Under the pieces are notes generated by a model, which was not told where the DNA came from, ran no database searches, and saw only the letters and a list, made by a program, of their open reading frames with translations. Below, in pieces: positions 1 through 62,097 of a DNA stretch of 64,000 nt. Made by a program: the position numbers and the translations under genes. Each line of letters opens with the position of its first letter. Position 1 is the stretch's first letter. Source of the DNA: Ascidiella aspersa (lineage: Eukaryota); assembly GCA_963924565.1 (NCBI GenBank), contig OZ004607.1, forward strand, positions 3,038,001 to 3,102,000. The letters are read 5' to 3'.

Positions 1-71
1 GCATCCGACCCGGTCGTCAAATAAGATACAGATCCTTGCATATTATAAAAAAAGATTGCCATTTGCCTTAC

Positions 72-9000: not shown

Positions 9001-12000
9001 TTTTAGTAAACTGGGAAGTAAATAATTAGTATATGGAGGTGTTAACAATATGGATTTCGACAAGTTCAATCAGGGTAGGAAAAACTAGTTTATGTACTGT
9101 TTATGTTGATTTAATTTAATTTATTGTGAAATTTTAATAAATAAGGGTGCCGTAATCTGTTTATCTTTTCTTTTGGGTACTGTAAGCCAACTACGAATTA
9201 AAAATACTAGCGTAGGTGTAAAATGTAACAGGAACAACTTGCTATTGAGCTTCAACTCCATACAGTGAGTTTTCTATAATGTTGTAACTATATATGTTTT
9301 CAGTTCGACCAAGATTTTTTCGAACTTAGAAAAATATCAAATTGGCTGTACTAGTCTTTAATTTCTCCAGTTTTATTGATATGGAGAAACGCACAAAAAA
9401 CACAAGACAACGAAAAACCTAACAAACTTATTTTTGACATTATAACTATACATGCACATGCACATATATATGCACCCTTACAAAAAAACACAAACGGAAA
9501 TGTTTATTTTTTAACAATGATTAGGATGTTTGTGTGGTTTATTTGACGCAAAGGGGATAACAAAAGCAGATTGTAAAAGTTTTTTCTTCCTAATGAATAA
9601 TGGAAGCATTTTAGTTGTCCCTATAGCGGGCAGCTGTCAGACTGGCAACAGGTGAAAGATTGACGGGCGACTATCAAACTGAGCTTCAAAAGTCAAGTTA
9701 GATTACGATACTCTTACAAATTAGTATCTAACTGCTGTATTTAACATTCTTTCTAGTCGATGTTACAATTAGTCGTCGTATTACATCACAATGCCCCAAA
9801 AGTGGCGTGATGTTTACTGCGTTAAGGTGGGTCATTCTACGTAAGTGGCAGGGTAAACACGTGTGCTTTTGTGCGACTGAGAAACCAAGCTAAAAGCTAA
9901 ACTAATAGTTAACACTTCTAGGTATCTCGGATGAAAAAGGTCAAGGCATATTTCAACAAAGTGGGCACATTATTGTGTTCATGACAGACACCTAACGCTA
10001 ATAACACACTAATGTAAACTAATAGGTTTAGAAAAAGAATTAATGTAAACTAGTAGGTGTAGAAATTATCAGCCTTCCTATGGGAGCGAAAAATTGTAAC
10101 AAAAAATTAAAGATTTGCGTAAAATATTACCCCGGAAGATTTATTTTCCTAGGTTTATGTAAAAACGTCAACAAAATAATCAGGTTGCTTTATATGGACA
10201 GAATAAAGGAAATGTGTAAAATACTTTTAAAATGAGATTAAAAATAACGACAAGCCTGTATTGATTTGTTGCAAAGTGTAGCCACAGCGGGACAAAAAGG
10301 TTTCCAAAAATAGAAATCGGTCGGCGTTTTATTCCTATCTGTCAACGCCGTCTACTAAAACAGGTCAGCCGCCATTCGCAGCGGATTCGGGGTTTTCAGA
10401 TTCCATCATAGGCAAGGAATATTCATCAAAGATTGGCTCGACGGTTGGTGTTACACAGCAGAATGCAATCCCGAGGGATAGAGAATTTCCTAGGTCGGAG
10501 AAAAGAGAACAACAGCAGCAGCATCAGCAGCAGCAGCAGCACACTTGTGTCTGAAGTGACGAGGTTGTCCCTTGAGGGGTTTGCCTTAAAGCTTTTCCAA
10601 CAGAAGGCGTTGTGTGTATGAGCGCCTGGGCTCGAGATTGATTAACAACAATTCTACAGCAACCTGCTTCGGGTTGCCAGTTAGTATTTTTTTTAACGCC
10701 AATTTGAAAATTTAGGCTTTTTTGTTTAAAAATGTCATGATTGTTATGTTTAGATGAGATCAAACTAACACAGAAAGAGAAAAAAATTCCAAAAAAATGA
10801 CAAAAAGAGAAAAAATTAAGCAAATTTGCCACAAAAAGAGAAAGTCAATGTACAAGCATGACCATTTATTGCAATTTTGATTTATTTAAGAAAAAACATA
10901 GGCTTGGTAGACTTGTAGTAGATTTGGCTTTTTTATTTTTTCTATCTGGCAACCCTGAACCTGCTTATTTGCTGCGCCGCCAATACACGCCACTGTTGGG
11001 TGTCGCAAAGGGCTAGACGGGATTTTAAAGAACATCACTTCGCAATGGCAATCAATTAGAGCGCCTTGCTAGCGGCAGTAAATTGATTAGGAAAATGAAT
11101 TAACGGCCTGTTTTTGTGACCACGTGCTGCCTTTGGGAGGTCTCGGTGCGACAAGCAGTGCGATTTACTCCAAAGTAATGACTTCGATCCTTTTTGAAAG
11201 CTAAAAGGCGTCGGTGACTCTAAGGAAATCCCCAACTGATTTTAACTTGGTTGTGTTGCCGTTCGTTTAATCAGAATGTTGGAATTGATATAGTTTCTTG
11301 GATTTATATTTACAAGATACATACAGCATGCGTGTACACCATCCAGCCGTTCTGAAATCCCTTTTTAGGGGTATGGGGGGTATTACATTAGCTTTCTTGA
11401 AAATTCGAACTGTCAAACGAAAGTATATAAAAAGGTGTATTTTTTATAAAAATCCGAAACGTGCTTGTTAATTTTGTTTTTCATAGTGTTCCTTGTACGT
11501 ATGTATCTTACTTTTACAGTATTTAAATTCCTTTAAACAAATCTCCAATCCTGGATTTCCCCCCGATTTTTTAGTATTACTCGCTTGATATAGTTCAAAA
11601 ATGATGAAACAGGGCGTGGCCAGGGTTTTTTAAGGTTTGGTTTGGGTGACCGCTAAGTAGTTTTAAGAGACCGCAAGTGTTTCATTTAAATACCAAAAAG
11701 TTGCAAGTCCAAAATTTGGGAAACCGCTGGAGAAATTTGGGGAACCCGTTTCGGTTCCCCAAAACACCTTAAAAAAACACTGGGTGTGGCAATTAGGACT
11801 TAAAGATATAAAATATAGAAATGCAAAACCAAGTGAAACAGTTATCAAAAAGGCATTGGGCAGTGTTTGACAAACCTTCCCAAAACACAGATATTTATTT
11901 GCTTAAAACACAAGTTCTCGTTCATATTTAAATCATTTCCTTTATTGGCAAATTAGCCTTTCATCATCACCACTCCGTTTATTATCTAAAGGTGAAAAAA

Positions 12001-15000
12001 TACAAAAGGCGATATGAATGGATTCATCTGCAATTAAGGTCATTGCTATTTGTAAGATTTTCAAGCCGAGGGCCTAACACTCAGTAATGTCAATTTCCTT
12101 AACAACACAAGTTCGATTTCATATAAATCACTTCCTTTTCGGGTAAATTGATTTTTTATCATCACTGGTCCATAAAGTCGTGATATCAGTCGCAATTAAG
12201 AACGGCCATTGTGTTTTGTGTCAGTGACCGAATTGCTCATTCCTATTTGGAACATTCTCAAGCCGAGAGCCAAACACTCAGTCATGCATCAATAAATCAA
12301 TTTAATTTAATGAGGATCAGGTCGGCTTACTTGCGGCATAATGAATGACGTCACACTGTGCCTGCCCAAAACGCGTGACATCACATTTGATAGTCGTGAA
12401 AAAATAAGGTCGCAAGTGGAAAAGTAGATCGGGGATGGTTTAAAGAATTAGTAACAATTTTGTCACAGGTATCTAATTCACTTTGGAACGCAATACACGC
12501 ATATTTTAGTAATTTCAACAAAAATACTAAATATTTGATAAAATCACAAAGTTTAAAACAACGAAATAACGATTTTATCGATTATAATGGCTTCAGTGTT
12601 TTTTTGTAATTACTAAGTTTAGTTAATAACGTTTTTAAACAATCAGCTTATAAGCTGGAACAAAATCTTTTTAGAAAGATCTTGGTAAAAGAATAACACA
12701 TTTACCGATTGTCATTGCTAAAATACGTAAAGGAGAATAATAAGCAAAATATACCGTAAGTAGTACGCGTGTTTTTTTGTTTTTTTTTTTAAGTACAAAA
12801 TCGAAGGAGAATATTGCCATTTGAGCTTTATATAGCAATATTATAAAACCGTCGATGCTTATACACTATTGAATGCAGTGACGCTATTCCATCGCACCCT
12901 AACTGTTTTAAAATGCAGCTCGGCATGTGTATGACGTAATGCAAGCGCATTCATTATTTATACATACTCGAAGCACACGAGAAGCCACAGCTCTACCCGG
13001 ACATCAAATGTGTAACAAGCGCCCGACGCTATTTACCAAACTCGTTCTCCAATGTGAATAACAGTAGCCTAGCCTGTTTTCAGTAGAAAGTTTTTAACTA
13101 GTTTCAACAAAAATAATAAAGCCATTATATTCGTTAAGGCTTTTTTTGAAATTACTGAAAACAACGTGTTCAAAGCTTTTTAACTAGTTTTAGGGTTTTC
13201 CCTATACAAAAGTCAAAAGTTAACGCATTTAATAAATATTTTGAACCTAAAATTTATTATTGTCATTCCTAAAACATTAAAAGGGAAACCACAAGCAAAA
13301 ATGGTCGAAAGTGTTTGTTTTTTCATAAGTACCAACAAACACGCAACGCTGTTTAGCAAATTGATTCTTAAATGTGAATAACAGTCCCCTGTTTTCAGTG
13401 AAAACTTTTTAATCATTACAATTTTTGCTTTTGATACTCGTGTTTAGGTGTACCTGTTCACTTGTAACGTCTTCCAGATATTCTCCAAAATGCTCCAAGG
13501 TTTTTCCTACGCCAGCAGAGTGGCCATCACCAACTCCGTTGAGTGACAAGTTTTGGATATCTAAGAACAGAAACCAAAGTTTTTGTGGCCACCAGTATCA
13601 AATTAACATAACAATCTAAGAACAGAAATTCCAACTTAACTAGGATTAAAAAAACAAAACACACAAAATAATGGAAAAAGTTCAAATTATAATCAAAACA
13701 AGCTTTATTATTAGCATGTAAATAAATACAGTTACATTTTTCTGTTCTTTGCTTTAAGTAACAACCGAAAATTAAATATCATTGTCGGTTCAACCAATAC
13801 AAGCATCACTTCAATCAGTAAATGTAGTAATTAACTGAAATACACAAAAACAATATAAGGAGTCCCCTCAAAAATAACAGAAATGTAAAACTGGTAAAGT
13901 AGTATCAGGTATAACATTGAATCGTTATTGTTTCAAAGTATGAGTACCAGAAGCACTTCCCTTACCTGTCATTTTTGTGTCAAATGGATCGGAAACAACA
14001 AGGTCAAAAGATTCGCTATCGTTTAAGTCCTCTTCGAGTGTCCACTTTGAAGCAAAACACGAACTGATAGTCAGGTGAAGTTTGTCATTAGATTCAGAAA
14101 TAGAAGAAATCACTTTTGGATCTGTCATAAATAATTTAAGATATGTAAAAAATCAATTTCTATATGGGTCGCTAAGTAGAGGGGATACTCAGACCAATAA
14201 AATGTTAAAAACTGTCTTTATACAGCGGGAATAATAACATGAACGTAAAGTAAAGCAAGTATAACACAACTAATTGGTTAAATTACAGAACAATAGTGAT
14301 AACAGGAATAAGGCGCGAAGTAAATAGCAAATCAAGGCCATACAAAACAAGTGTTTAACAGCATAAATTTATCTAGCAGAAACAAAATATAAGCAATAGG
14401 TTCAATACAAGAATAATCTTTAAAAAAAAAAAGAAACTTAATCAATCACATAGTGGAAAAACTCATAATAAATTTTCATATATTAAAATAAGTATATACA
14501 ATTTTTTAGTCTATGACTAACTGCAATGATTCAGACCAAACAAAAATCTACATTGAGAGACTACTTTTTCCCTGTGCTGCCTCCAATCCACAACAGGATC
14601 AATGTGCTTGTCTGGAGTGCAGCTAAACAGTCACGTAGCTGTCCAGACTGCTTAGCACACAAACCTTACAGCCTGCAGGCAGCACACCATGCCTACACCA
14701 CACAGGAAAAAGGCTGTAATGCCGTAATGCATATTTTATAAGGCAGTGCCAGCTGACTCTCATCTGGGGACCCATTCGTAGCAGAAATCAATCGCATCTC
14801 TCGCAAAAATGGATTACCTTAAAACGCCGGCACCATTACGCTGCCTGGTCATATCAATGCGACATCTTTAAAACTCTCGACGGAGTGATTTTTAGTCGAT
14901 TGCATGCTACTGGACATATCATTATCGATGGAAATATCATCTTTTCAAAACATCTTTGAATGATTTAAGTTTTTGAGGAAAATAATGCCTCATCAAAGCA

Positions 15001-18000
15001 AACATTTACAAATGTATTGACCATTGTTAAAAAAAATTCAGTTGTCTATTTTTTGTGATCAAAAGACTTTGGAAACAGAGATCCAAAAGAAAGTTATGGT
15101 ATTTAAATGTTATGGTTTCAAATGTTTTTAAAACCAAGCCAACTGGTGTAAAAAATATAGATTTAAAACCAATGAGTGTAAAATACACAACAGCTTTATC
15201 GAAAAAGTGGCATAAACAGCAAAACATTTCTTATAAGGTTTTATTCCCATTGCAAAACTTTTAAAAGGTCTCCTAAGACCTTAATTGTTTCATAATTGTT
15301 TCAACTAAAACTACAACAGATAATTGATGAAATAATAATAATATTATTATTATTTTTGTTAATTTTGGGATCTAAGCCTGCTCCAACATTGCTAGTTGTT
15401 GATCTCTTCTCCATATCGTAAGATTCAATGAATCATTCGAATTAAGTATATTAGCAGAACTGATGATGCTTTTTGCGTAACTATAGTATTCTGCTTTTGT
15501 TGAATAAAGTTGTTTTAGATCTTTTTTACAACCTTTGTGGTTTTGCTTGAATCTACAACACATGAATGTTGAATAGCTCGCCATACTTAACAAACCTGTT
15601 AAAATATCCAGCAATGTTTTGGGAGAGAAAAGTCCGTCTTGCAGATACCAGTCTGCCCTGCCATCGATGGAATGTCCTCCATATACAATAAGTCTGTCTT
15701 TCGCAGGGGTCAACAGAATTCGAGCTATTTCATTTTTCACAATCAAAAAGGTGGGATTCACCAGAAGTGTGGCTGACACTTGAGAAGTGCTGTAATAGAC
15801 TTCAACGAAACCTTGAAAAGTGTGTAGAACTGTGTTAAATTTTTAATTCTCAGTCAAACTCACATGATATTAATGGTTGAGGGTTGTAGTAAAACGTAAT
15901 AAGAATATCAAAGCCCATACAGAAGTAGGTATCATCTTGAACATTTCAAATAACTCTTTATTCATTTTCAACATCAAAGTTTTTTTCAACATCAAAATGA
16001 TGCCAAAAATGAATAAAGAGTTATTCGAAACGTTCAAGATGATGCCTTCTTCTGTATGGGCTTTGATATTCTTATTACGTCACACATGATATTGTTTGAT
16101 AAATTATTACATAATTGAAAATATGAGTTTCACAGAAAACTAGCAGGCCTACTCATTGGTATGCTAAATAAAATTTAAACTAAATTGACAAAAAGATCCA
16201 TTAGGCAAATTATAATTTGTAGAGTTCTTAACAGCTCTATTATTTTGTTTTAATTGGAAACAAAGGTGAAAAACCTCTTTAAAGTTTCATAGATTTAATA
16301 GAAATCCAAAATGCAGATTTGCTATGTTTAGTTTACAAATAAAACGCTGAAAACAAATGTCAATTTAAAAAAAATACCTGGTTCATCCTCGCTTACACAA
16401 ACTTTTGCTTTTGAGGGAAATGAAGTGAACAGTTCGTTGACTACTTCGCTGCTGTTAATTCTATTGGACCAATTAGAAATACCTAAAATAAAAATGAAAC
16501 ACAATCAGCAATTAATATAAATTAAATTACAAGCCAATGATTCTTGTATAAAATAATAGTTTTAACTTTTGGAACGAAAAAAAAAATGTTGTGGATAGGG
16601 ATGTTCAAAGTAGAATCCCAAGGTATTCTAGAATAATAGGTTTCGAATCTAGAATAACGAATCCAGAATAGCGAATCCTAGTATATTTTTATTAAATTAT
16701 TTAACCTCGATTTTGTTTGGGGAAGGGATTAATCTTAATCTACCCTACAGGGCCCACAATCACAGCAATAAATCGCCCAAACAATTTTCTAACATGTGTA
16801 CATTATAATAAAAAAACTCTCTCATATGTTTAACATTCTTAACAACTGTCATCTGAAGCCGTTCTGTAAACTGGAATATGTCAACTGTCCAGGTTGTGTC
16901 CAAAACTTATATTTTTGCCAATAGTGAGCAAATGCAACACTGCACACAGAAGTCTTAAGCAATTCGGTCCTGTTTTTGAAAGCATTGTTAAGTCTTATTG
17001 CTTCTTTTTTGACTAACATGATCTGTTATGCAGTCAAATGATGTACTGCAAAGAATACAAAGTTATTATTGACATAACGAATTCTTGACAATTACGTTGT
17101 GCATAACTGCATAACTTCCCTGAATATTGGCCTAAAGTTGACCTTAAGTAACCCCATAGCGCATTTTGTGGACGGCCAGCACGTTTTGCAACGCTATGTT
17201 ACTTTTGCAACTTAACGCATTTAGGGAAATTGCGAACTCCACACCAGACATTACACGCTAGTCGCTCGCCCAATAACGCTTGATTGACACTTAATTATTA
17301 GACGAACGTTATCGCGAGACGCGGTAATTGGTCGCCCGAAAAAACGCTGACACTGCACTACGAGGTTACACTTAAAGCAAGCACTATGCATTGGTCGCCG
17401 CAGCGACAGGCCAAATTACCACACGCGTTTGTACAATTAGGCGCGACGGTCGGCGGTAAAACATTAAATTATATCGGTTCCAATTACCCGAAATAAATGG
17501 CAGAATTGGATTCGAATCTCATCTGGATTCGAATCCAAGGATTCGATATTCTACTTTGAACATCCCTAGTTGTGGAAATAACGCATTCATTTGTAGGATT
17601 GACTTGGCTAACTAAAGATTGGAAGTGAATAAACAGTAATCAATATAGTGTTGTTGTGAGGCATGGTTTCAATTATAAATGTTTATAGTTGCAATAATTT
17701 TTCCCTAAAGAAGATTACCTGTATAGTATAGTTGGCCCAAACTTTGGTACTATAATAATATTTTGTCATAAGAAAAATTTGAACAAACAGCAACTACCAT
17801 AATTAACCAAGTTACTTTACATGGGTTTTTATAAAAAGAATATCCAACAAAGTTGTTACCCCAATGATACAATTCTAGGCAAGTTATGCATACAAAAGTA
17901 CTCATATTAAACCCTTATAAAATATTTATATTTCAAGCCTGCTTTGTACCATATTGCTCATCATAGGGTGAACAAAATTAAAGGTAGATTCATTTCTGGC

Positions 18001-21500: not shown

Positions 21501-21722
21501 CCTAAATATGGAAAGGTTGATACATTCCTTTGACGAACACATCATTTAAGTTTTTGGGCACAACCAAAAAACCGAAGAATTTACGCCAACAATGCTTGTC
21601 AACAGAAGGCTGGCAAGATTCTGCCAGCCTGTAAACAGCAACTACCATGTGACTTTATCAGGGTTAATAATTAAATTTAGTGATTATTTTTCCAGGTAAC
21701 GAACTTAAAATAGCTTATTTTG

Positions 21723-22799
21723 ATGATCAGGTCCCTCATAATGGAAAGTATTAAAGGGAAAATCGATCTGCAAAAGAAAGATATTACAACGTTGAAAGTG
21801 GATGCGATTGTAAATGCAGCAAACGAAACACTTTTGGGCGGAGGAGGTGTCGATGGAGCGATTCACCGAGCTGCGGGTCGCCAACTTCTCGAAGAATGTC
21901 GGAAATTAAATGGATGTCAAACTGGAAAGGCAAAAATTACACGTGGGTACAACTTACCTGCAAAGTTTGTCATTCACACCGTCGGCCCATTCGGTGAACA
22001 TCCCAAACTGTTGGAAAGCTGTTACAAAAACAGTCTGGATCTTCTCAAAGAGAAAAATCTTCGAACAATTGCGTTTCCTTGCATTTCAACCGGCATATAT
22101 CATTATCCAAACCAAAATGCTGCCGAAGTCGCCTTTGAAACTGTGTATAACTGGATTAAAGACAACCCAGGCTCAATTGAAAGGGTAACTTTTTGTCTTT
22201 TTCTTGATGATGATGAAAAAATTTATAAACAATTGCTCAAGAAATATTTCCCAGAAAATGATGGTAGTTCAGTGGATGGTGAGGGTTACCGAAAACGCAA
22301 TCAAGAAAAGGTTAAATCTGACAAAACAAAACAGGATAAAAAAGGTGAAAAGTCTGGCAAAAGTTTACTTGACTGTGTACCATTTTTGGGATCAAAGAAA
22401 GAGAAAAATCCAAAAGGTAAAGAAACTGCCCCAGAGTCACATCCTGGTAAAGCTACACAATCTAACAAATCTGTGCATACAGCTGTTAATAAAGATTCCC
22501 ATCACCAAGCTAAAATTCCTGTGGTACATGACAAAGAGGCTGATATGGAAAACACCAAATTGAAAGGTGAAAATGTTAAGGGCAATTCTAAAGAGCAAAG
22601 AATGCCAGATCGCGGCGAAGAAGAAATGGAGGACACAAGCAACCAACAGAAGCGTGTAAAAGATGATGCAAGAGCTGGAGATGGAAAGCCAACTGATGAG
22701 CTTCAGAAACCTACAGAATTGAATGACAATTCGCCCGAATCGGATAAAAATGATTTAGGGTCTGACACTAAAGAAAAACTTGAAAGCATTGATGTATAA
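21723..22799 (+). CDS. MACROD: MacroD-type macrodomain protein (ADP-ribose glycohydrolase / O-acetyl-ADP-ribose deacetylase, MACROD1/2 family), single coding exon
   Basis: Motifs [37 protein letters not shown] and [11 protein letters not shown], then a charged low-complexity tail. Start is ATG 21723 or 21741. Acceptor ttttccag ends at 21695, and AATAAA occurs near 23274 and 23297. Confidence 0.93.
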
Positions 22800-43500: not shown

Positions 43501-46500
43501 GGTCGACTTTGTTTTTTCAGGCTTGCTGACTCTACCCATCATCTCTTTTGGTTGTCACATGGTTTCCGAAATCACTTTTATCGTTTGTATTTTTGCCAAC
43601 GTCGTCAGCAAGTCTATGAAACGGGACTACCTCGGTAAGTGACACTCATTCTGTAGATTTAATCAGTAAAAATGTACTTAATGAGATTTTTGCTGACATT
43701 TTAGTAAATACTCAACGAAAATCCCAGTCGGGGTGCCGCAAAGCGTAAGCCATACAACGTACGTTAAGAATTACTGTCCTAAGCATTTAAAACTTGGTGC
43801 TCTACATGTATATGTGTCTGCAGTGCACCAAGCACGTGCTTATTTTGTCTAATTGTTAATCCAGCCCTGCCTATTAACCATGCTTATCTAAATAAAACCA
43901 TTCTAGTATTTTATCAGTATCGGAATAACATATGACGTTTTGGAAATTTTAAGTATACCTATCGACCATTCTTATACCGTAACCAGTGTTTCTCAATGGG
44001 TCGCTTCTTGAAATTAAGCGGACCGTTAAGTTAGTTTGGCCGCAAAAGGCAGTAGTATGTGGTTTGATAATAAGATTGATCCAGACGAATTCACGCCAAT
44101 TTCTAATGTTTGATGAAAAAAGTTGAGTGAAGAAATTTAGTGGTTTAGAAACACCGCAGTAAATAACTGCATATTTTAGGATCTCCACCGACTCCCTTGG
44201 AGTACATGTTGCTGCTTTGGATACTGGGAAAGCTCTTTCAGGAATTCCAGGAATGTTTTAACCGCGGATTTAAGAAGTACTTTTCCGACGCATGGAATTG
44301 GAACGACATTGCTCAGCTAACCTTTTTCACTGTTGCAATTATTTTCAGGTGGGAGTTTCAAGTTCAGGTTGAACTGAGGGTATTTTCGCAATGCGCATGA
44401 ATCTTTTCCGTATTTTTATTAAACGAATCTTTTCCGTATTTTATTAAATTCAGGTGTTAAACTGCTATAAAACGAAAAAGTATAACTAACTTAACTGATG
44501 GGAGCTGGACTCGAAAACCAATTGTCCGGTTGTTATCATCAGTACAGTAAAAAGTCAGTCGATGCCTAAACCTTCAGGGTATAGTCGATTTGTAGATTTG
44601 CCCTGTCATAAATATGAAACTCGCGCATACTTACAACTTTTGACGTTTTAGTAAATTACGGTGTTTGACATTTTAATAAATAAATTATTGTCTAAATAAA
44701 ACCTACCGCGAATGTGATTTCCTGACCCTATCTACTGTGGAAGCAGCGTTTGATGTAAACAACGCAACAATTAAGGCTTTTTAAATGTAATCAGTTAAAA
44801 AAGTTTTTGTAATGCGGCTTTTTCGTTGTGAGTAACTTTTCTCTAACGTAAAAGTTTAACAAAGTTTGCAACGTCGCATTTTAAAGAATCTTCTTGGCGT
44901 AGTTGTACTGCGGTAGTTTTAACCAAAACTATAGAAAAAAATAATAAATCGCTTTTTAATAAAAAAAAAATAATCACTTTCTTCTCTTTCATCTTGCGAA
45001 ATAATCGGCTTCATCCAGTATGGTCATAATAATCTGACATCTCAGCAAAACTATTAAAAAAAATATTACAATTACTTGTTGGTATCAAGCAGAGGAGCTC
45101 TTTTTGATGCGCGTTCTTGCCTTATACCTCGCAGAGTAATCGACTACGCCCAGTATGGGAGATCTCCAAAGATGACTCCAAGGCCGAAGTGGACTCGCTA
45201 CGAACCTCGTCTCATGTCCGAAGTCTTCCTCGCCTGGGCTTACGTCTTCTGCTTCCTGCGAATTCTGGGAATGGGCCGGGCCGACCGCACCCTCGGGCCC
45301 CTGCAGGTCTCCCTGGCCAGGATGATGACCAACATCATGCATTTTCTTCTCATCTTCGCTCTTGTCATCTTCTCATTCGGACTCGGACTCAGCGAGCTTT
45401 ACTGGTTTTACGGGACGGTTCCAGGAAAGCAGCTTCCCTGTCGAACAACAGGATCATTGTTCAACCAAACCTATATGAACCAGACCTTTATAAACGCGAC
45501 TGCCAACCTTACAACATCAACACCATCGAACACTTGCAAGCAAATAGACGTTGGATTCTCAACCATCTCACAGTCGCTTTTATCTCTTTTCTGGGCTATT
45601 TTCGGCCAGGTTGATCTTACCAAGTTGTCTCTTCTCGGTCAGCAGCCGGTTACCGAAGCGAGCGGACGAGTTCTGCTGGCCGCTTACCACATTTCCGCCA
45701 TCCTTGTGCTGATCAACATGTTGATCGCCATGATGGCAAAGACCTACGAAGACACGAGTCAGAACGAGGAAAACGAATGGAAGTTCCACCGCACTGCCAT
45801 GTGGATTCGCTTTATCCGACGCGAAGTGGTTCGGCCCCCGCCCATGAATCTTATCCCGAACCCGTACCGCGCCGCCGAGACCTTCAGCGCAATTAAAAAG
45901 TGAGTTTTTTTATCTTTATTCTGCTTCGTGCTATTAAAAATGAACGACGACAGGCTGTTGCGTTCCTGTAATTGAAAATGAATAAAGAGCTATTCCAAAC
46001 GTTCAAAATGCTTACTTCTTTATAGGTTTTGATGTGATTATTGCGTTTTACTACAGCCTTCAAATTATACCCCAAAGTGTTAAAATTAGTGTTAAATCGG
46101 TGCTTCAAAAAAAGTCATATAACTCTGATTATTACAGCGACAGGCTGCTGCCTCCTGCTATTGAGAATGAATAAAGAGTTATTCCAAAAGTTCAAAATGA
46201 TACCTACTTCTGTGTGGGTATTAAAATTCTTACTGAGTGTCAAACTGTTATCGCGGCTTCAAAAAACGTCGTATAACTCTCGTTGTTATTGACGAGAGGC
46301 TGCTGCCTCTTGCTATTGAAATTTAGTAAATAGCTATTCCAAACGTTCAAAATAATACCTACCTGTTTTTCGGTTTTAAAATTCTTACCAAGTGTCAAAA
46401 TTGTTATTTCATCGTGGCTTTAACTCCCTTTGTTCATGACGACAGGCTGTTGCGTTTCTGTAATTGAAAATGAATAAAGAGTTATTCCAAACGTTCAAAA

Positions 46501-48224
46501 ATGCTACCTACTTCTTTATGGGCTTTGTTATTGCGTTTTACTACAACCTTCAAATTATGCCCCAAAGTGTTAAAATTATTGTTAAATCGCGACTTCATAA
46601 AACGTCGTAAAACGGCTCTAAATCTTGACGACAGGCTACTGCGCTCCTGTTGCTGCAATTTGTTCGAAACGGTCAAACTGATACCTACTTCTGAATGGGT
46701 TTTAAAATTCTTAACAAGTGTAAAAATTGCTATTTAATCGCCGCTTTAACACCCTTTGTGTCCTAAGACGGGCTGCTGCGTTCCTGTAATTGAAAATGAA
46801 TAAAGAGTTATTCCAAACGTTCAAAATGCTTACTTCTGTATAGGTTTTGATGTGATTATTGCGTTTTACTACAAACTTCAAAATATGCACAAAGTGTTAA
46901 ACTTGATGCCTACTTCTGTATGTTTAATGGTGAAAATAACGGCCCAAATAGACATAAAAAGCGACATGCTTTATCACTGATGTTGGCATGAGCATTTGCC
47001 GAAACGTTTGAACAATAAAGCATGTCGCTTTTTATGTCTATTTGGGCCGTTATTTTCACCATTAAACTTATGAACAGATCCGTATATAGTGTTCCAAAGT
47101 ACTTCTATATGGGTTTTAAAATTCTTACCAAGTGTCAAAAAAGCTATTTGATCGCGGCTTCAACTCCCTTTTACTGATGACAGGCTGTTGCCTCGTGAAA
47201 CTCCCTTTGTTCATGACGAAAGGCTGCTACGCTCCTGTTTTTGAAAATAAATAAAGAGCTACTCCAAACGTTCTAAATGATACCTACTTCTGTGTGGGTT
47301 TTAAAATTCTTACTAAGTGTTAAAGTTATTGTTAAATCGCGACTTAAAAAATCGTTGTAAAACTCCTATTGTTCTGGACGACAGACATTTATATGAAATT
47401 CAATTTATTCAAAATGTTCAAAATGCAAAAATGTTCAAACCTACTTCTTTGTGGGTTTTAAATTTTTTACTAAGTGTCAATTAAGATTGTTATTTAACAG
47501 CGGCTTCAAAAAACGTCGTATAACTCTTATTGTCATACGACGTTACTGACGACAGGCTGCTGTTGCCTCCTGCTATTGTAAAAGAATAAAGAGCTATCCC
47601 AAACGTTCGAACTGATACCTATGCGTTTAAAAATTCTTACTAAGTGCCAGAACTGTTATTTCATCGCGGCTTTAACATCATTTGTTCTTTGACTACAGGC
47701 TTTTGCGCTCCTGTTATTGAAAATGAATAAAGGGCTACTCCAAACGTTCAAAATGATACCTACTTCTGTGTGGGTTTTAAAATTATTACTGTGTCAAGAT
47801 TGCTATTTAATCGCGATAGTTATTTAATTTAAACCCTTTGTTCTTTGACTACAGGCTTCTGCGCTCCTGCTGCTGCAAGACTCCGATAGAAGAGCAGGAG
47901 CAGCCCAAGGATCAGATGGAAGTTCCCGGTCTCCTTCACAGTCGCTCCTTTGACAATCTGAGCCAAAAGTTCTCCCGAAACCTCTCGCGGAAGCCCACCA
48001 GGAGCAACACGCAGGGAACCTCTTTCCGGCGCCCGGCCAGCTTCCAGCGGGCTTGCCGTGACGTCATAAGTTCGGACCTACGTAAGCAGCGCGCCAAGCG
48101 CGTCATGATGAAGCTGGTGAGGCGATACAAGTACCGCGTCTTCTACAACAGGAACGTGGACTGTAATGTTGCGGGTGGTTCGGATGAGCGGACCACCAGC
48201 TGGCAAACAACATGCAATTTCTGA
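28512..48224 (+). CDS. TRPC: Canonical transient receptor potential (TRPC-family) cation channel, about 1111 aa, 14 coding exons
   Basis: Phase-compatible exons: 28512-29007, 29525-29650, 31087-31227, 31837-31987, 33123-33324, 34096-34305, 38295-38405, 39552-39695, 40369-40557, 41953-42100, 43521-43634, 44180-44348, 45135-45899, 47855-48224. Features include ankyrin repeats (SALWVAIKN, GITPMMFAASCNNY), KFVTHPNSQ, LGPLQVSLARM, pore SLFWAIFG, S6 LINMLIAMM, TRP box EWKFHR, PPPMNLIP and C-terminal VMMKLVRRY. Confidence 0.92.
29735..30280 (+). repeat. Degenerate tandem repeat of about 130-180 bp, 4 copies, in TRPC intron 2
   Basis: Recurrent aagttaaaaagcaag..ggctgc..agaattg..ggtgtaattgcagacattcgtttaaatgttatttg. 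Confidence 0.8.
31294..31603. mobile_element. hAT (Charlie-like) MITE
   Basis: TIRs caggggtgggcaacc / ggtcgcccacccctg; perfect TSD atgtaaac. Confidence 0.85.
32790..33093. mobile_element. hAT (Charlie-like) MITE
   Basis: TIRs caggggttcttaaact / agtttaagaacccctg; TSD ct(t/c)taaat. Confidence 0.85.
33332..33495. mobile_element. Palindromic Penelope-like insertion (family A) at the TRPC exon 5 donor
   Basis: The 12-bp TSD acaaagtaagta (33320-33331, 33496-33507) duplicates the splice donor. Confidence 0.78.
35732..35848. mobile_element. Palindromic insertion (family C, decayed hammerhead)
   Basis: Perfect 26-bp inverted arms cttgataatgaattgcaaagccaaaa. The interior atacaagctcgtatcgaaacgtc and the downstream sequence match the 52962-53043 element. 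Confidence 0.6.
36516..37837 (+). pseudogene. Decayed multi-exon gene fragment ending in a Sushi/CCP domain exon, nested in TRPC intron 6
   Basis: 37663-37837 translates PICSDINAPENGLMSCSLEMKTGSVCEFTCKDGYSLEGHPTLQSSGGKTWTNDVPTCK, a CCP pattern with the penultimate Cys replaced by Ser (AGT), followed by phase-1 donor A|GTTAGT. Upstream AG..GT-bounded blocks 36782-36925 (open, phase 0-0) and 37176-37281 (phase 0-1, two stops) chain in compatible phases. 36516-36580 may be a frameshifted leader exon. Confidence 0.65.
38692..38817. mobile_element. Short hAT-type MITE
   Basis: TIRs cataggcgtagccag / ctggctacgccactg; degenerate 8-bp TSD agctgtat/ggctgcat. Confidence 0.65.
40874..41451. mobile_element. 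hAT (Charlie-like) MITE
   Basis: TIRs cagggttgtccaacac / gtgttggacacccctg; near-matching flanks gtttatga/ggttatga. Confidence 0.72.
42786..43460 (+). repeat. 21-bp minisatellite (about 32 units) with a 280-bp higher-order duplication
   Basis: Unit aaaac(t/c)agttcacagacccc(c/t). The variant pattern from about 42880-43160 repeats at about 43160-43440. Confidence 0.95.
45940..47854 (+). repeat. Degenerate tandem array (about 11 units, roughly 140-190 bp) of splice-acceptor copy + family A hammerhead-like segment in the last TRPC intron
   Basis: Recurrent gacgacag|gctg(c/t)tgc..cctg followed by ttgaaaatgaataaagag(c/t)tattccaaacgttcaaaatgatacctacttctg. Acceptor copies end near 45953, 46143, 46298, 46445, 46634, 46771, 47183, 47222, 47384, 47555 and 47698; the real acceptor ends at 47854. 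Confidence 0.85.
46923..47099 (+). mobile_element. Palindromic Penelope-like non-autonomous insertion (family B) with hammerhead-like loop
   Basis: Perfect 53-bp inverted arms (46922-46974 / 47015-47067) around CUGAUGU...GAAACGUU, plus a unique 3' tail. 12-bp TSD tacttct(g/a)tatg at 46911-46922 and 47100-47111. Confidence 0.8.
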
Positions 48225-55144: not shown

Positions 55145-58100
55145 ATGAAGTTCTTACTGCTGTCGTGTGTTATTGCAACTGTTATCGTGTGTACTTGCTC
55201 CGAAAGTAAGTATTTAACAAATTTCCAGGAATCAGTTTCTTTGTTGTAGGTTTGTTTCGTGATAATTTGTGATTTGTCGTGAGTTCTATGCGTGTCGTGA
55301 ATATTCCATGATTGCATTTGGTTAATTGTTCATTACCCCATTACTATGTGCCAATTTTTTCATGCTAGTTAGGTGATTGTTTCGTGAATGCTTCATGTTA
55401 TTCGTGATTGGTGATATTCATTACATAAGACTGTTCATTCCCCTACAACTAAACGCAATAGACGATGTTGCTTCGCGTTAAAGTCAGTACCATGCACCAG
55501 TCATGGAAACGTGATTTTTTGTGGCTCCTGTAATATTCCAAGTCCCACGGCTTGCACCTTACATTGGGTTGGGAAGATTATAAAAGTAAAGCATTCCGGG
55601 CTTGTGCCAGCATTTTGTTCCCAACTATCATTTTGTACGAACAAAAAAACTATACATCAGCTTTAATCGGCCGGAAAAAGGAACAATTTAAGATTTGGCA
55701 GTCCACATGTTGCTTATCGAGGAGTGTGGACGGCTGGCAAATATGTGGCCCAAATATTAAGATTTTTTAATTACTTAGAGGCGTGGTTTCCAAACTGCGG
55801 TCCGTCGAGTTTAAGGTTCCCGCTATTTCAAATAAAAAAACAACTAAGGTATATAATGAATATTAACCATCAATCTTTCCCAAATAACTTTAATGTATCA
55901 ATCATTGAACACTTGCTTTTAGCGAGTATAGTTTGTAAAAGTACTGGTTCAAAAGTAAGACTATATTTATTGTATCATGACTACATTTTAATTTAGATAT
56001 TAAAAATTGATATTTAAGAAATAACTCTGTTTAGAAGAAAATTGAATAACTTAGTTTAGAAGAAAAGTTACTTCATGGACAAACGAAAATAAAAATATAA
56101 TTTTCCGATTTCTTTTTGTTTTTTTCCATGATTTTTTTTTCGAAATATGTGTTAAAAATCCTAAAATCTACGTTAAAAGTTCCCAAATCTATTTACTGCC
56201 CTAATATTTCGTCGCATCCTTTCGTTTTTTCCAGGAAAGTGTTACGTGAACCGCAGATCGTTCGTTGAGGGCGAGAAGTTCAGGTATGTTTCGCAGCGCA
56301 CCGGCTGCAAGTACAACTGCACCTGTCTCTTCGTAGGACGTCGTGCTTACGGCAACTGCACTCACAAGTAGGATGGGCTACACCTTTCGCGATAAGCACT
56401 GCTTTAAGTGGATTGACCTATACTCGCGCGCACCTGGCTACTATTTTGGGAAGTGTTTAGGCTTTAGTTTTTGTTATCGTTTAGTGCCTTAAGGCCGACG
56501 CCGAGATAGTTTTGAAATTAAATCAATAAAAAATATTACGAAATTCTAAGTCGAAAATCGGCTGGTTAGTGTTTTACGATAAAATATTTTATTAAAATAA
56601 TCAATTCTTTTATAATAATAAGCGCAAAGTTTTTTCACAAATTTAATAAAAGGTGTTTTAAAAGCTAGCAAATTCAAAACGCTACTGAAAAAGCCAAACG
56701 TTATTCAAGAATTCGTCGAAAAAACTTTGTAAAAGTTATCGGAGTTAACCTGGAATTTAACAGCTTATCTATATTTCGGTATATAAAAATTGCACACTGA
56801 TTTACAGTATTTTTTACTAGTAAACTATTGGCACTTTGGGTGTACTTTACTAAAATCTCCTGGCATATTAGGAATTGGTTGTACATGTAGCAGCCGGCTG
56901 GGAAAAACAGTTCGACTCTAACTCACAATCTATGTCTATAACATATCATTGATCACAGAATTTTGCTGCGATGTTGTTCGTGATTTTAAATAGTTTTTTC
57001 GCAGTGACCTGATTAACCCACTTGTTTTACGAGCAGATGTAGGGGGCTTACTTACCCCCCTGGATGCATGCCTGTCTACAACCCGTGTGGGTGTGCATTC
57101 AACTATACGTGCATCGACGGCGAGAAGTGTCAAGACCCTGTGGTGAGTAAACATTTTTCAGGGCTATTTTTTTAGGGGAGGGGCCTAAACCGAATTAATA
57201 TGACGTCAGAAAGTTTGGTCCACAATTTGTGCACTACATATTGCTTAGTGCAGTGATTGTTGAACTTAATTCTTTACTCAATCTCTTTTAAATCGCCAAC
57301 CTAATCTTCATTCTAAAATTTCTTAATTAACAAATCCATTGTAAATTAACTGTTATACAAATAAACACAGTAACATAATACCCACATTAAAGTTAGATTT
57401 ACACTTAACTTACCAAAGAAATAAATTACAGTTGTACATTTTCTTAGCTTGGTGTAATATAATTGTTTGAGGATTAATTTTGCAAGCCGGAATGTTGTGA
57501 AGGGCATTGACCTAAAAACACCTAAAATGTTTGCCAAAAGTTGAAAAAAGTACACTGGGTGCATCTTGCTATATTTTGTTAGCGAATGTGTAATCTCCGA
57601 CGCAATTGCCATTTTGGAAAGAAGTTTTTAGGTCTGATGCTGAAACAAAATCCAAAGCGGAAAAAATGGCTGTCGTTCTAAAATTGTTTTTTTAACAGAC
57701 GAAAAATCTCTACGCGGTTGGCGAAAAATGGACGAACTCGACTTGCTCTTGTAACTGCCTGGGAAATCAAAAGGGGGCTTATCGATGTGATTGTGGTGAG
57801 ATCTAATGCGATAACTGCAAAACTTTATTGGAACTATATGCTATTAATATCATATCTTTGTAATGGTAGCTGTAAGCAAGGTGGTTTTAAAGATAACCCT
57901 CTAATACGATAACTGCAAAACTATATAGGAACTATATCTCTGTATCTATATCTGTTTGTTTTGGGTTGGTGCCTCCTCACAGGTTGCTGTTTCTAATGTT
58001 CATGGTCTATAAGAGTATATTCCTGACTTTGCTCTCTCAACCGAAGTCAGCTCATATTCGCATAATGCATATAGTCTCTCTTCGACTATAATGCATGCCC

Positions 58101-60287
58101 ATTGCCCAAGTTCGGTTTAAGTTATACGCATTGCAGCATACACCAGAGACGCAAAACGTAATGCAAAAAGCATTCTAGGCCGTATTGTTAAAATTCCCGA
58201 TCATGGTCATTCTTACCACTTCTAGTAATTCCACATCGTTGCAATGCTTTTCGAGCCAAGATTTATTTGTCAATATTTTTGTGACCTGGAACTAAAAAGC
58301 ACATTAAAACTAACGCAAAAATTCTGTCTCGGTTGCAGATGATAAGAAAGCGGCTGCTAAGTTGGCACTGGAACAACCTTGCGTAACAGACAACGTCACT
58401 ACATGCTACAGCTGCCCGACAGGTAAGGGATAGTTCGCTAGTAATTCATCATTGTCTTACATTTTCCAAATTTAATCATCTGTTCTTAAAGATTTCTCAG
58501 CTATACTCTGCCCCGTTGAAGGCTAGCAGTTAACTCACTCTGTCCTTCAATTCTAGAAGAATCCTTTATTTAGAATCCTAATTCAAAGTTATGTTTATTT
58601 TGACGTCAACTAAAAAACGTTTTTTTCACAGTATACAGCGCTTGGCAAAAACAAGTAGTAGAAGGTATGGGGTGAATTTCCTATATATTTTCCGCATGGG
58701 GGCGCCGTAACGCCTTTCATTCGCTTCAAAGTGACTCTTTTGGGTCAAGTCTGGCGGCGCATGTAAAAAACAATCAAAGAAAATAGTAACGAACTATAGT
58801 TATGAAGAAAATGTGTCTAATATAATCTTGGAGTTTAATTTACTCTTATGAACCCAATGTTAATTTCATAATGCATGCCTGGCGTGATGGTGTCAATAAG
58901 GCTAAGTATGCGTTTATCTAAAATACAACATAAACAAAATGCTTTTAAAAACGAAAAAAAATAATACTGTTTCTTGCATATTGGCAAAATTTAAAAAAGA
59001 TGAAATTACCTTTTACAACGTCATACTTCATAACCTTTACAACGTTATACTTCATAACCTTTACAACGTTATACTTCATAACCTTTACAACGTTATACTT
59101 CATAACCTTTACAACGTTATACTTTATAACCTGACGACTGACGTCAAAATCAATCTTGAAAACATTTTTTGTTCTCGAGCGAACTCGTGGGAAAATGCAG
59201 CTAGAATCGAGTCTAATCGAGAATCGCAAAAACGCATTTACTTGGTTTAAAATGGCAAATCGCTTTAATTTTGAAACGTGTCGCATTAGGCACACATATC
59301 AGATATCGCAAATTGCTAGAAATAACGGCATTTATGGTTTAATTTGACCTTTTGGACATCTGATCTTTTCGTACTCTGTCCCTGCTCTTTATAGCAAATA
59401 GTTATGATTTGGGCTATGCTAATACAATAGGTTCCATCCTTATTTCGTATACTATGTCATGCTATATACCAGGCCACTTTACGTTATTCAATAATGGTAG
59501 ACTACATTATTTTATATTAGCGTCTATAACTGACATAAACTTTTTCATTTACACAACATCGCAAAAATCGGATCCCTAGATAAAATCCAAACAAAAACAA
59601 CCACTTATTCGGTTTGACCCATCGTTAAATTCTCTTTCCAGCAACGCATCCACTCAGGGGAAACCCCAATTGTGCGAAGCGGGCCAAATGCGAACAGTGG
59701 CCTTTCTCCCACCGGCGGAAGGGAGTCTTGGTTCCGATGACCTGCACCTGCTACGGGCCGAGGGGATTCACTCAGTGCGTGTCCCGAAAGAAGCAGAAAA
59801 GGTTGGCGTTTGTTCATATTTGTCGTCGCTAGTTTACGGTCTATGAAGGCCTTTTGACTTTATTATTTGATAATGGATAAATGGATCTCACAGCCATAAT
59901 GGTCGATTTACTCAACTTTTGATTATCAAACTGCATTACAGATCAGTGTTGCGTAGTGTACCTAAGGAATAGTTTTTTGTTTAATGAACAGCATCTAATA
60001 AAAGTTTTTGCGTGATGTAAAGTACAAAGATGCAACTGAAATTTTAGTTTAAATAAATTCAAGAAAATTACGGATTAACCTGGTAAAAAATACATTTTTT
60101 TACCGCTTAATCCGTAATTTCCCGGTACGGCGTACCAGGGAAAGTTTTTTTTCTGGAATACTTTCACCACTTTATGCATATTTACAGGTCCCTGTTAAGA
60201 AATATCGATCGTTTGCAAGGAATGGATCTCCGTTGGTCGACTTCGGAAAACACCTTAGATCCTCAAGTCAAGTCTCGAATCGTGTGA
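55145..60287 (+). CDS. Small secreted cysteine-rich protein (about 246 aa): signal peptide + VWC-like module + fibronectin type I-like modules; 7 exons
   Basis: Phase-compatible exons 55145-55205, 56235-56367, 57037-57142, 57699-57795, 58339-58422, 59642-59801 and 60188-60287 (741 nt in total). Signal peptide: MKFLLLSCVIATVIVCTCSE. VWC-like: CYVNRRSFVEGEKF...CKYNCTC...CTHKC...PPGC...CGC...YTC. FN1-like: CQDPVTKNLYAVGEKW...CNCLGNQKGAYRCD and W...MTCTCYGPRGFTQC. AATAAA near 60425. The last exon is the least certain. Confidence 0.8.
59006..59131 (+). repeat. 24-bp tandem repeat, about 5 copies
   Basis: Unit taacctttacaacgttatacttca. Confidence 0.95.
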
Positions 60288-62097
60288 TGGCAAACGTTTG
60301 TGCGAGAGAACTTCTTGTTAAAAGTTGTTGCTGGATGATTGATTGGTGGCGAAGAACGGAATTTGAATTCGTGCTAGCGCGAATCGAATTGTTAGGTTTA
60401 AAAAGTTGATTGTTCCGCCTTCAAAATAAAAACAAAATATTTTTTTCGTCGCGGCAAGAGGCCTTTCACTTCAAAATTAAAACAATGAAAATTAAAGGTG
60501 AAAAATGTGAATAAAACATATTAGGGACAGACTATAGGTGCGCATCCGTGATTTTTCACGGGGAAATTGCTACCAATATTTTAAGAAATCACGTAACAAG
60601 TTACATCATAACGTACCGTCATAATTCAACGATCTTAATAAGGATGCTAATCCAAAACCATATGCGATAATGGAATTATAGAGTAAAGTTAGAAGGAAAT
60701 TTTGAAGGCACACAAAAATAAAAAGTTGGCACGAAACACAAAAAATTAGACATTGTGTTTATGGTTTTGAAGAGTTTTTTTATTTATGGATTCATAATAA
60801 ATACATGATTTTTTGAGGGGGCACGGTCTTGTTGTCCCCTGTTTTAGGCGTTAAAAGTTTGCCGACTGAAATTAAACTTATAGCAACTGCCCATACGTGG
60901 CGGTTTGCAAAAGACTCAAGCCTAAAACCATTTGTCAAACAGGAGGCTTTTCGGCGCTGCTCTAAAATCCTGCAACATTTTCCTCGTGGGGGTTTATATT
61001 GCTAACAATATTTGGGATAGGGTGTGAGTTAGCGTTTGGTTCGGGTTGGTGAAATAGAATACAGTAAATTTTAAACGCAATAAATTTTATTCTTGTTAAC
61101 TTTTAGCAAAGTTTAAATAGGACGGAGCTATATGCGAGAATTATTCTATTTTTTAACGGCGATTCCAATACTGAGCGTAAGTTTAACATCAACTCTTTGA
61201 CGGCAAAATTGTCTTTAACTTAAATTTTTGAAATACGACCTAAGGCATTAGTATAAATAAGTTCGAATTTAGTTAATCTTAGCGATGTCTCGTATTGCTT
61301 TTTAAAGAAATCTTTCTCTGATCAAATCTCAATAAATCTAAACAAATAAAAAGACTTCAACCGGCGACTCAACCGAACCAACAGCCACAGTTGTGGGTGG
61401 CGAACCATGGGTGGAGAAACATTGGTGTGCGCGATTAAATCCCCGCGGTTATCAAAAGCTCAACTTTCGGGTTGGTGAAGTATTATTACATTTAATCCCG
61501 CGTATTTATTTCCTTCTTGCACAACCCTGCATACATAACAGCACAAAACGTTGCTAGCATATGACACAAGAGAAAATATACATCCTCGAAATTTAAAATT
61601 TGGAAATATAATTAAAGCACAAAAAGAATTGAGCCTCGTATAAACTTTTACAAAACAGAACGTCGGCATACAGACAGCGCTAGAATTTATTACCGCAATA
61701 GAAGAAAAAAAGAAGGCTGCTTTGTATAAAAACAAAGTAAAAGCACATTAAAACGTAAAACTTGCGAACCAATCGAAGGCAAAAAACCGTCGTCAAAGTC
61801 TAAAAAAATCTTGCAAAATGTCAACATTTCGTAACAAGCAGCAGTTAGTTAATTTTTTTGCTATTGAAAAGGACCTAATGGTGTTAAACTTATACAATCC
61901 ATCACCAATACAGATATATGTATAAAAAAGTCAAGTTAGGAAAAGTTGTTCACATTTTACAAATCTTGATAAAAATAAAACATAACGGTCAACAAAATTA
62001 TCAGCGACGCGAGAAAAAAAACCGCAACAGTAGTATAAACAATAAAACTCAAAGTTTAAAAAACAGAGTAAAATCAGGATCAGACATTTTTTTACAA

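Follow-up and report, generated by a model that had tools for sequence, protein, structure and literature searches.

Seven candidate exons in a 64,000-nucleotide stretch of the Ascidiella aspersa genome (contig OZ004607.1, positions 3,038,001 to 3,102,000; hereafter, the window) raise the question of whether one small protein joins a VWC-type module to FN1 modules of the fibronectin finger type, and how these modules relate to each other. The exons, all on the + strand, join in frame to give 741 nt encoding 246 aa and a stop codon; the six introns all start with GT and end with CAG, with phases 1, 2, 0, 1, 1, and 2. The features (window positions) are as follows.

55145..55205, + strand: exon 1, carrying the ATG and coding for the predicted signal peptide (aa 1–20), ending in phase 1
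56235..56367, + strand: exon 2, coding for the first half of module 1 (aa 21–64) with C23, C45, C49, C51, and C62
57037..57142, + strand: exon 3, coding for the second half of module 1 with C66, C75, C82, C84, and C90, plus C96
57699..57795, + strand: exon 4, body of module 2 with Y105, W111, core C118/C120/C130, extra C116 and C132, and sequon N113
58339..58422, + strand: exon 5, linker with C147, C155, and C158, these Cys being conserved in Ciona
59642..59801, + strand: exon 6, module 3 with C171, C177, C195, C197, and C206, then a basic stretch leading to a dibasic site
60188..60287, + strand: exon 7, tail (aa 214–246) without Cys and little conserved, with the stop codon
60425..60430, + strand: candidate polyadenylation signal AATAAA, read from the sequence; another lies at 60510–60515

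The seven-exon gene is confirmed, and its model is not a product of chance, because the protein aligns colinearly with the C. savignyi orthologue H2Z8E9 (P0048) over residues 4–223 (235 bits; E-value, 3.7e-72, against 78 sequences). The C. intestinalis orthologue is F6TWX3/XP_026692032 (LOC100176823), with the database name ‘fibronectin-like’; the names of the Ciona proteins are automatic only. Both orthologues are full-length, with the same length and module order as in the Ascidiella gene. Identity to the two proteins is 39–63% in exons 2–6 (58–61% in exon 3; ~50–60% over the Cys-rich exons) and 10–21% in exons 1 and 7, exon 7 being the least supported exon. Three of the 27 Cys lie inside the N-terminal hydrophobic stretch and are not kept in Ciona, and the remaining 24 mature Cys are kept, 24/24, in both Ciona proteins. 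Three sequons (N48, N61, and N113) and the dibasic site K/R-R-S after module 3 are likewise common to all three species. The hydrophobic N-terminus is shared by both Ciona proteins, and is likely a signal peptide, as judged from the sequence and from a helix predicted at residues 3–20 of the orthologue.

In the genomic runs X1 and X2, all 12 indels listed (of 16) are outside the exons. Among the 30 substitutions listed for 55145–57968, three fall within exons, of which two are silent and the third lies in the signal stretch; with about four expected, this is no depletion. The portion of RNA run X3 that was scanned (~6% of the run, without a positive control) gave eight partial reads, none on the exons and none with spliced joints.

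Word-based homologue searches returned nothing with exon 6 (one candidate) or exon 2 (no candidate), unlike the profile search, which recovered the orthologue. Orthologues from Styela, Clavelina, amphioxus, and vertebrates were absent among the 78 profile hits and 77 candidates, which is weak evidence of absence, and a metagenome scan gave 276 pattern matches with none confirmed. A literature search found neither a description of the module architecture nor a paper describing the modules of the Ciona orthologues. The seven phase-compatible exons and ~246 aa proposed in the initial annotation are thus borne out by the frame, the GT–AG introns, and the Ciona orthologues; the motifs it quoted are present in the sequence, and the extra Cys it noted beside the FN1-like units are upheld. 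Its description of the gene as hidden does not hold, as the orthologues are already in UniProt and RefSeq as ‘fibronectin-like’, with Pfam fn1 precomputed.

Judged by sequence, module 2 is a true FN1 module with two extra Cys. On a vertebrate FN1 profile, it scores 37–39 bits (38.3 for the whole module of this gene), compared with 12–63 for held-out lamprey fibronectin modules, 21–26 for the fibronectin-type modules of this genome, and at most 27.9 for held-out halves of the molluscan VWC subtype nearest to it, in agreement with the FN1 call of the initial annotation. With Pfam fn1 (PF00039; gathering cut-off, 27 bits), the whole orthologues score 38.3 and 34.4 bits over three stretches each, the best on module 2. 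Exon 4 alone, without the first Cys of the module, scores 20.1 bits and matches human fibronectin (2ec3) with an E-value of 1.4e-4. C96, C118, C120, C130, Y105, and W111 align to fibronectin F1 (PF00039; 1fbr, 3ejh, and 2ec3) as the four-Cys core with C-x-C and the Tyr and Trp, and module 2 has these residues in common with the tPA and factor XII fingers as well. All eight PDB sequence matches of the orthologue are to fibronectin, led by the F1 pairs 4–5 and 8–9, and the C90-x5-C96 spacing equals that of the F1-to-F1 linker of fibronectin.

An FN1 module has only four Cys, with disulfides 1–3 and 2–4, and is typically, though not strictly by definition, encoded by one phase 1–1 exon. Module 2 carries six Cys rather than four, C116 and C132 being extra, and its C–D loop is about five residues shorter than that of fibronectin F1. 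It also begins in exon 3, where C96 serves as its first Cys, so that a phase-0 intron lies within the module and there is no single phase 1–1 exon. At other FN1-like loci, candidate phase 1–1 exons were seen for three modules. The strands predicted for module 2 are compatible with a two- plus three-stranded β-fold (low-confidence model), and this predicted model superposes, with low Z-scores, on the tPA finger (Z-score, 4.5; root-mean-squared deviation (rmsd), 2.6 Å over 44 residues) and factor XII (Z-score, 4.2; rmsd, 1.7 Å over 39 residues).

Module 1 is neither a standard nor a CCN-type VWC module; its first half scores nearer to FN1 and is predicted to have an FN1-like fold. Its ten Cys (C23–C90; spacings 21, 3, 1, 10, 3, 8, 6, 1, and 5) include the VWC core C-x3-C-x-C, a frame common to CCN3, collagen IIA, and molluscan VWC-repeat proteins (P0070, P0074, and P0075). 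The terminal VWC Cys-Cys pair is missing, and all three species have C-G-C-x5-C in place of the C-C-x-C of VWC domains, together with a longer FN1-like hairpin. Pfam VWC (PF00093) gave no match at E-values up to 1 (C. savignyi) or 10 (C. intestinalis), the locus is absent from the 69 VWC matches of the genome, and module 1 scores −4 bits on a profile built from 19 VWC domains of the same genome. It is, however, alignable end to end to the molluscan VWC-subtype profile (20.1 bits for C. intestinalis, 14.3 for C. savignyi, and 9.2 for this gene); exon 3 alone matches the second half of this subtype weakly (6–9 bits). Exon 2 scores 17.8 bits with Pfam fn1, below the cut-off of 27, and its model (pLDDT, 92) superposes on fibronectin 3ejh with a Z-score of 6.5 (rmsd, 1.2 Å over 41 residues). 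For module 1, comparison with the two-subdomain VWC fold gave a Z-score of 3.8 for CCN3 (5nb8; rmsd, 5.5 Å over 64 residues) and 3.5 for collagen IIA (5nir; rmsd, 6.5 Å over 66 residues), the match to CCN3 being weaker than that to FN1. Exon 2, with its predicted FN1 shape, also has an extra VWC-type Cys ahead of C-x-C, and carries sequons N48 and N61. CCN proteins consist of IGFBP, VWC, TSP1, and cystine-knot modules in this order, and Pfam found none of the companions IGFBP, TSP1, and cystine knot in the Ciona orthologues. The initial assignment as a CCN-like VWC therefore stands for the ten-Cys spacing and fails on the absent Pfam match, the missing Cys-Cys pair, and the FN1-nearer first half. 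The FN2 and FN3 arrays of fibronectin are likewise absent, the Pfam scan of the Ciona orthologues finding fn1 only, and the Ascidiella protein has no protease domain.

The best structural match was fibronectin 8–9FnI, deposited with a collagen peptide (Z-score, 7.1; rmsd, 1.0 Å over 43 residues), where Z-scores below 8 can reflect a shared arrangement and the alignments of both models contained FN1-like or VWC rows. The model of the whole orthologue was poor (pLDDT, 59; pTM, 0.31), with residues 136–174, including the exon 5 linker, under 50. With the 43-residue model, Foldseek found nothing at E-values up to 0.001, its top four rows being FN1. The best Atlas values were an uninformative 0.80 for exon 2 and 0.87 for P0048, the latter with a structure TM below 0.3. 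A scorpion-toxin row in the PDB search (E-value, 0.32) was dismissed as chance.

Module 3 appears from its sequence to be a weak half-FN1, a degenerate FN1-like hairpin. Against the profile of vertebrate FN1 modules, only its second half aligns, with a score of ~14 bits that 0–1 of 200 shuffles reach, which upholds the weak FN1 end seen initially; exon 6 has no Pfam match. Exon 5 aligns to molluscan VWC ends, though not above shuffles, and the linker may be what remains of the second half of a VWC module. The tail of module 2 was also considered as a VWC relic and rejected as not significant (Cys-fixed shuffles reached the real score in 192, 115, and 12 of 200). Cleavage at the dibasic site probably removes the exon 7 tail.

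Because the protein lacks a catalytic domain, an RGD, and any transmembrane segment past the signal stretch, binding is the sole role supported by its anatomy. We tentatively suggest, as a reading just short of probable, that it is a conserved, likely secreted, glycosylated, dibasic-trimmed Cys-rich protein acting as a matrix adaptor. Following secretion, proprotein-convertase cleavage would leave approximately residues 21–214, in which twelve disulfides may form, including a third cross-strand bond, C116–C132, in module 2. The fibronectin-finger-like modules would grip extended strands of matrix proteins, presumably by β-strand addition as in the complexes of fibronectin F1 with collagen or bacterial peptides. 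Fibronectin binding uses directly adjacent F1 pairs, whereas the FN1-like units here are set apart by Cys-rich inserts of 27–40 residues; this separation counts against an adaptor that binds by fibronectin-type pairs. Ascidiella has 37 K+R against 16 D+E, compared with 27/18 and 24/21 in Ciona, so heparin binding is unsupported as a family trait.

A soluble BMP/TGF-β modulator, in which module 1 binds the growth factor as a VWC domain and the FN1-like modules only anchor, appears unlikely. The ten Cys of module 1 and its end-to-end fit to the molluscan profile are in its favour, as are, as a lead only, the VWC2L/VWC clusters among the Atlas feature neighbours (0.84–0.85); BMP/TGF-β binding is the function most commonly ascribed to VWC (PMC3533774). 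The failure of module 1 in all three VWC searches (Pfam, the genome matches, and the own-genome profile) and its weaker fit to CCN3 argue against such a modulator. It is less probable that the protein serves humoral defence or recognition, binding microbes in blood or mucus like arthropod single-VWC proteins, which in insects are reported to act as cytokines or pattern receptors (PMC13115929). Such a role would suit a small, Cys-rich protein that is basic in Ascidiella, a charge not conserved in Ciona. ‘FN-like’ F6TWX3 is listed in a Ciona immunity study (PMC10433773), but the primers given there (XM_002120240.4) fit no frame of the orthologue CDS (best, 4 of 8 residues); a UTR location is possible, yet the qPCR data are probably those of another gene and were rejected as evidence. 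Least probable is a Cys-cross-linked structural component of the tunic or a larval adhesive. The searches found the protein in ascidians only, and it is rich in Cys with a tail that is likely cleaved; however, the mature Cys are even in number (24) and conserved throughout, in keeping with intramolecular pairing, and exons 2, 3, and 6 have no matches elsewhere in the genome, which argues against an expanded structural family. That search was a loose first pass, which distant paralogues could escape.

In this protein, the modules grade from the VWC type to the fibronectin finger type, with possible relevance to the origin of FN1. A VWC–FN1 link has been put forward on structural grounds alone (PMC3533774, with reference to O'Leary et al.), and PMC3002383 and PMC5006582 describe FN1 as deuterostome-specific. 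A VWC-spaced module beside FN1 in one natural protein offers a concrete object for testing this link, in a genus for which CRISPR tools exist; its significance is limited by the prior presence of the gene in databases and by the presumptive nature of its function. It is conceivable, if rather doubtful, that the steps from VWC to FN1 are preserved here: module 1 as a ten-Cys VWC with an FN1-shaped first half, module 2 as an FN1 with a decaying VWC second half (9/10 Cys positions), module 3 as a free half, and the freed module then used in undescribed secreted tunicate proteins containing FN1 only. Remodelling within tunicates alone accounts for the data equally well.

The initial annotation described FN1 as best known from fibronectin, tPA, factor XII, and HGF activator; in tunicates, its occurrence beyond fibronectin and clotting proteases is not rare. 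Apart from fibronectin, the Ascidiella genome has at least four further FN1-like genes, and relatives of these occur in Styela, Clavelina, and Ciona. Such modules in several small tunicate proteins bear on the origin of the fingers of fibronectin. Styela LOC120339055, Clavelina LOC143450647, and C. savignyi H2Y7W8 are likewise small, with a hydrophobic N-terminus and FN1-like modules; most of these modules have four Cys, about five are arranged in tandem, and the VWC-type second half of module 1 is lacking. Counterparts of the FN1-only proteins are located on contigs C4 and C1 of the Ascidiella genome. The F6TWX3-type gene is a candidate for the Ciona ‘Fibronectin-related’ gene already in print (Fn-related, KH.C2.667; bioRxiv 10.1101/641233), but several other tunicate FN1-only genes match the description equally. 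A chromosome test for KH.C2.667 was uninformative, as two Ciona chromosome-2 markers split between contigs C6 (FAM167) and C3 (FGF9/20-like, placed after checking three of ~7 FGF loci). At a further locus, on C9, FN3-looking frames are followed by FN1 modules, as read by eye.

The seven exons of the gene at window positions 55145–60287 on the forward strand join in frame to give 741 nt encoding 246 residues with 27 Cys, and all six introns have GT...CAG ends. A profile of 12 fibronectin type I (FN1)-like modules (three from this gene and nine from other loci in the Ascidiella aspersa genome) was run against 1.84 billion proteins and recovered 78 of them with E of 0.001 or less. Only one of the 78, C. 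savignyi H2Z8E9 (P0048), matched the whole model (E, 3.7e-72; runner-up, 1.5e-12). A search with H2Z8E9 added one further orthologue, C. intestinalis F6TWX3 (XP_026692032, 'fibronectin-like'), making two among 77 candidates, H2Z8E9 itself included. All 24 mature Cys are kept across the orthologues, the three N-terminal Cys are not, and all three species share three sequons (N48, N61, and N113) along with a K/R-R-S site following module 3. Because the orthologue matches the whole model with conserved Cys, the exon chain is confirmed independently of RNA, excepting exon 1 (predicted signal stretch) and exon 7 (Cys-free tail), which show 10–21% identity to the orthologues. The gene structure proposed in the initial annotation is thus confirmed by the in-frame joining, the intron ends, and the full-length orthologue, and the interpretation attached to it is supported in part. 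The protein is not hidden, being already in databases under the automatic name 'fibronectin-like', and is apparently undescribed in papers; no paper on the architecture was found in a search that reached few subscription journals.

In two runs of genomic reads, all 12 of the indels listed (12 of 16) lie outside the exons. Two of the three exonic substitutions listed are silent and the third falls within the signal stretch, with no depletion of exonic substitutions against expectation. No exon reads were seen in ~6% of the RNA run X3, which had no control. In the available text of PMC10433773, F6TWX3 is entered as 'FN-like' with primers for XM_002120240.4, and the corresponding row of Table 1 pairs UniProt F6TWX3 with RefSeq XP_002120276. 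The primers given there have no match in the F6TWX3 coding sequence, and the two accessions probably stand for different genes.

The protein contains three Cys-rich modules. Pfam fn1 matched exons 2 and 4 below its cut-off of 27 bits (17.8 and 20.1 bits, respectively), and the other five of the seven exons had no Pfam match. Exon 4 matched human fibronectin F1 in the PDB with E 1.4e-4. Module 2 (C96–C132) scored 37–39 bits on a vertebrate FN1 profile built from 38 modules; on the same profile, held-out lamprey fibronectin modules score 12–63 bits, the fibronectin-type modules of the genome 21–26 bits, and held-out molluscan VWC (growth-factor-binding module) halves at most 27.9 bits. Judged against these held-out fibronectin modules and molluscan halves, module 2 is by sequence an FN1 module, as initially called. 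That it might be an ordinary VWC half had been named in advance, and was ruled out by its 13–24 bits on VWC profiles (22–24 on the molluscan VWC half and 13–21 on generic VWC). The last hairpin carries the C118–C130 pair, and the extra C116 and C132 flank this pair at a distance of two residues on either side, positions at which an additional C116–C132 bond across the strands would fit. Alternatively, alignments suggest that C132, C147, C155, and C158 may be remains of a VWC second half, a reading unsupported by the shuffle test.

Module 1 (C23–C90), initially assigned as VWC, bears out that assignment in its ten Cys and VWC-type core, but ends in C-G-C-x5-C. Pfam gave no VWC match for it (both orthologues), and it is not among the 69 VWC matches of the genome; a profile built from 19 of these gives it –4 bits. 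It aligns end to end with a 36-member profile of molluscan VWC repeats at 9–20 bits, but these repeats had been recovered by the FN1-like profile search, which selects for the VWCs closest to FN1. The first half of module 1 scored 21–24 bits on the vertebrate FN1 profile, 30–32 on tunicate FN1-like modules, 18–26 on the molluscan VWC half (held-out members, at least 51), and 12–13 on generic VWC. The second half has a weak resemblance to VWC, with a score that 2, 3, and 19 of 200 shuffles attain. Modelled alone (pLDDT, 92) and within the orthologue, the first half has fibronectin F1 as its best structural match (Z-score, 6.5 alone and 7.1 within the orthologue; rmsd, 1.0–1.2 Å), with lower scores against the CCN3 VWC (3.1 and 3.8, respectively). 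We therefore read module 1 as FN1-like in its first half within an overall VWC frame.

Module 3 (C171–C206), taken initially as the end of an FN1 module, is a weak and partial FN1 at about 14 bits, a score reached by 0–1 of 200 shuffles, and was modelled at pLDDT 50–60. The Cys-free tail follows a dibasic site, at which it is likely removed.

Since it lacks a catalytic domain, a membrane anchor, and an RGD motif, the protein is most likely a secreted binder. We tentatively favor a matrix adaptor, which would bind by FN1-type strand addition. Modulation of BMP/TGF-β ranks second and seems unlikely, a defence protein is still less probable, and a tunic component, fourth in rank, is improbable. 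According to the accessible part of PMC3533774, the first VWC subdomain resembles FN1 and a relationship is possible; that this one protein preserves a VWC-to-FN1 series is doubtful.

The accessible portions of PMC5006582 and PMC3002383 confine FN1 to deuterostomes and give Ciona fibronectin six FN1, and that of PMC6337849 places FN1 in proteases. A Pfam fn1 scan of the genome gave matches at 11 places. Reading by eye gave the following gene models on contigs C1, C4, C8, and C9, which do not have complete 5' ends:

C4:18149000-18165000 (L015, L016), near 18.15-18.165 Mb: two inverted gene copies, each with about five FN1-like exons (tandem modules)
C1:26099000-26102200 (L018, L019), near 26.10 Mb: three FN1-like exons (tandem modules)
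C8:11600700-11606800 (L022, L023), near 11.60 Mb: FN1-like exons, five in tandem, at a locus distinct from that on C9
C9: fibronectin-type locus with FN1-like modules

The C4 modules match, in order, those of Clavelina LOC143450647, Styela LOC120339055, and C. savignyi H2Y7W8, and together these constitute a conserved FN1-only family, for which no paper was found. The first FN1-like exon on C1 resembles the first module of this family. The C8 locus is, like the seven-exon gene, a candidate for 'Fn-related' (KH.C2.667), placed in notochord and ddN neurons in the available text of bioRxiv 10.1101/641233. In a chromosomal test of that identity, FAM167 and the FGF9/20-like gene, both markers of Ciona chromosome 2, fell on C6 and C3, respectively (three of about seven FGF loci covered), and so did not single out a contig. 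Styela clava LOC120336684 (P0021), once named NELL2-like, has FN1-like repeats, four EGF domains, and then two more FN1-like repeats, and a further small family (P0019, P0038, P0041, and P0054) combines an acidic tail with four or five FN1-like modules. Four-Cys repeats of the annelid Capitella teleta (P0069) reach 15.3 bits on Pfam fn1 (E, 0.022), and a molluscan VWC subtype (P0070, P0074, and P0075) has a median of 15.6 bits on vertebrate FN1 versus 6.6 for generic VWC. Given such protostome sequence matches, FN1-like modules may occur beyond deuterostomes.

The neighbors in the window (macrodomain, ion channel, MAP1B-like, and TPR) suggest no functional link to the seven-exon gene. Features of the window are as follows:

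46-3039, reverse strand: low-complexity frame of 998 codons
15375-15842, reverse strand: MAP1B-like N-terminal exon (E, 1.5e-12)
21714-22796, forward strand: macrodomain gene in one long frame (Pfam Macro; E, 1.3e-44)
45058-48221, forward strand: ion channel exons, likely TRP-type (Ion_trans; E, 1.1e-12)
59010-59135, intron 5: a 24-base unit repeated about five times in tandem, read from the sequence

The MAP1B-like exon and the 998-codon frame possibly belong to one gene spanning 46-15842 on the reverse strand.
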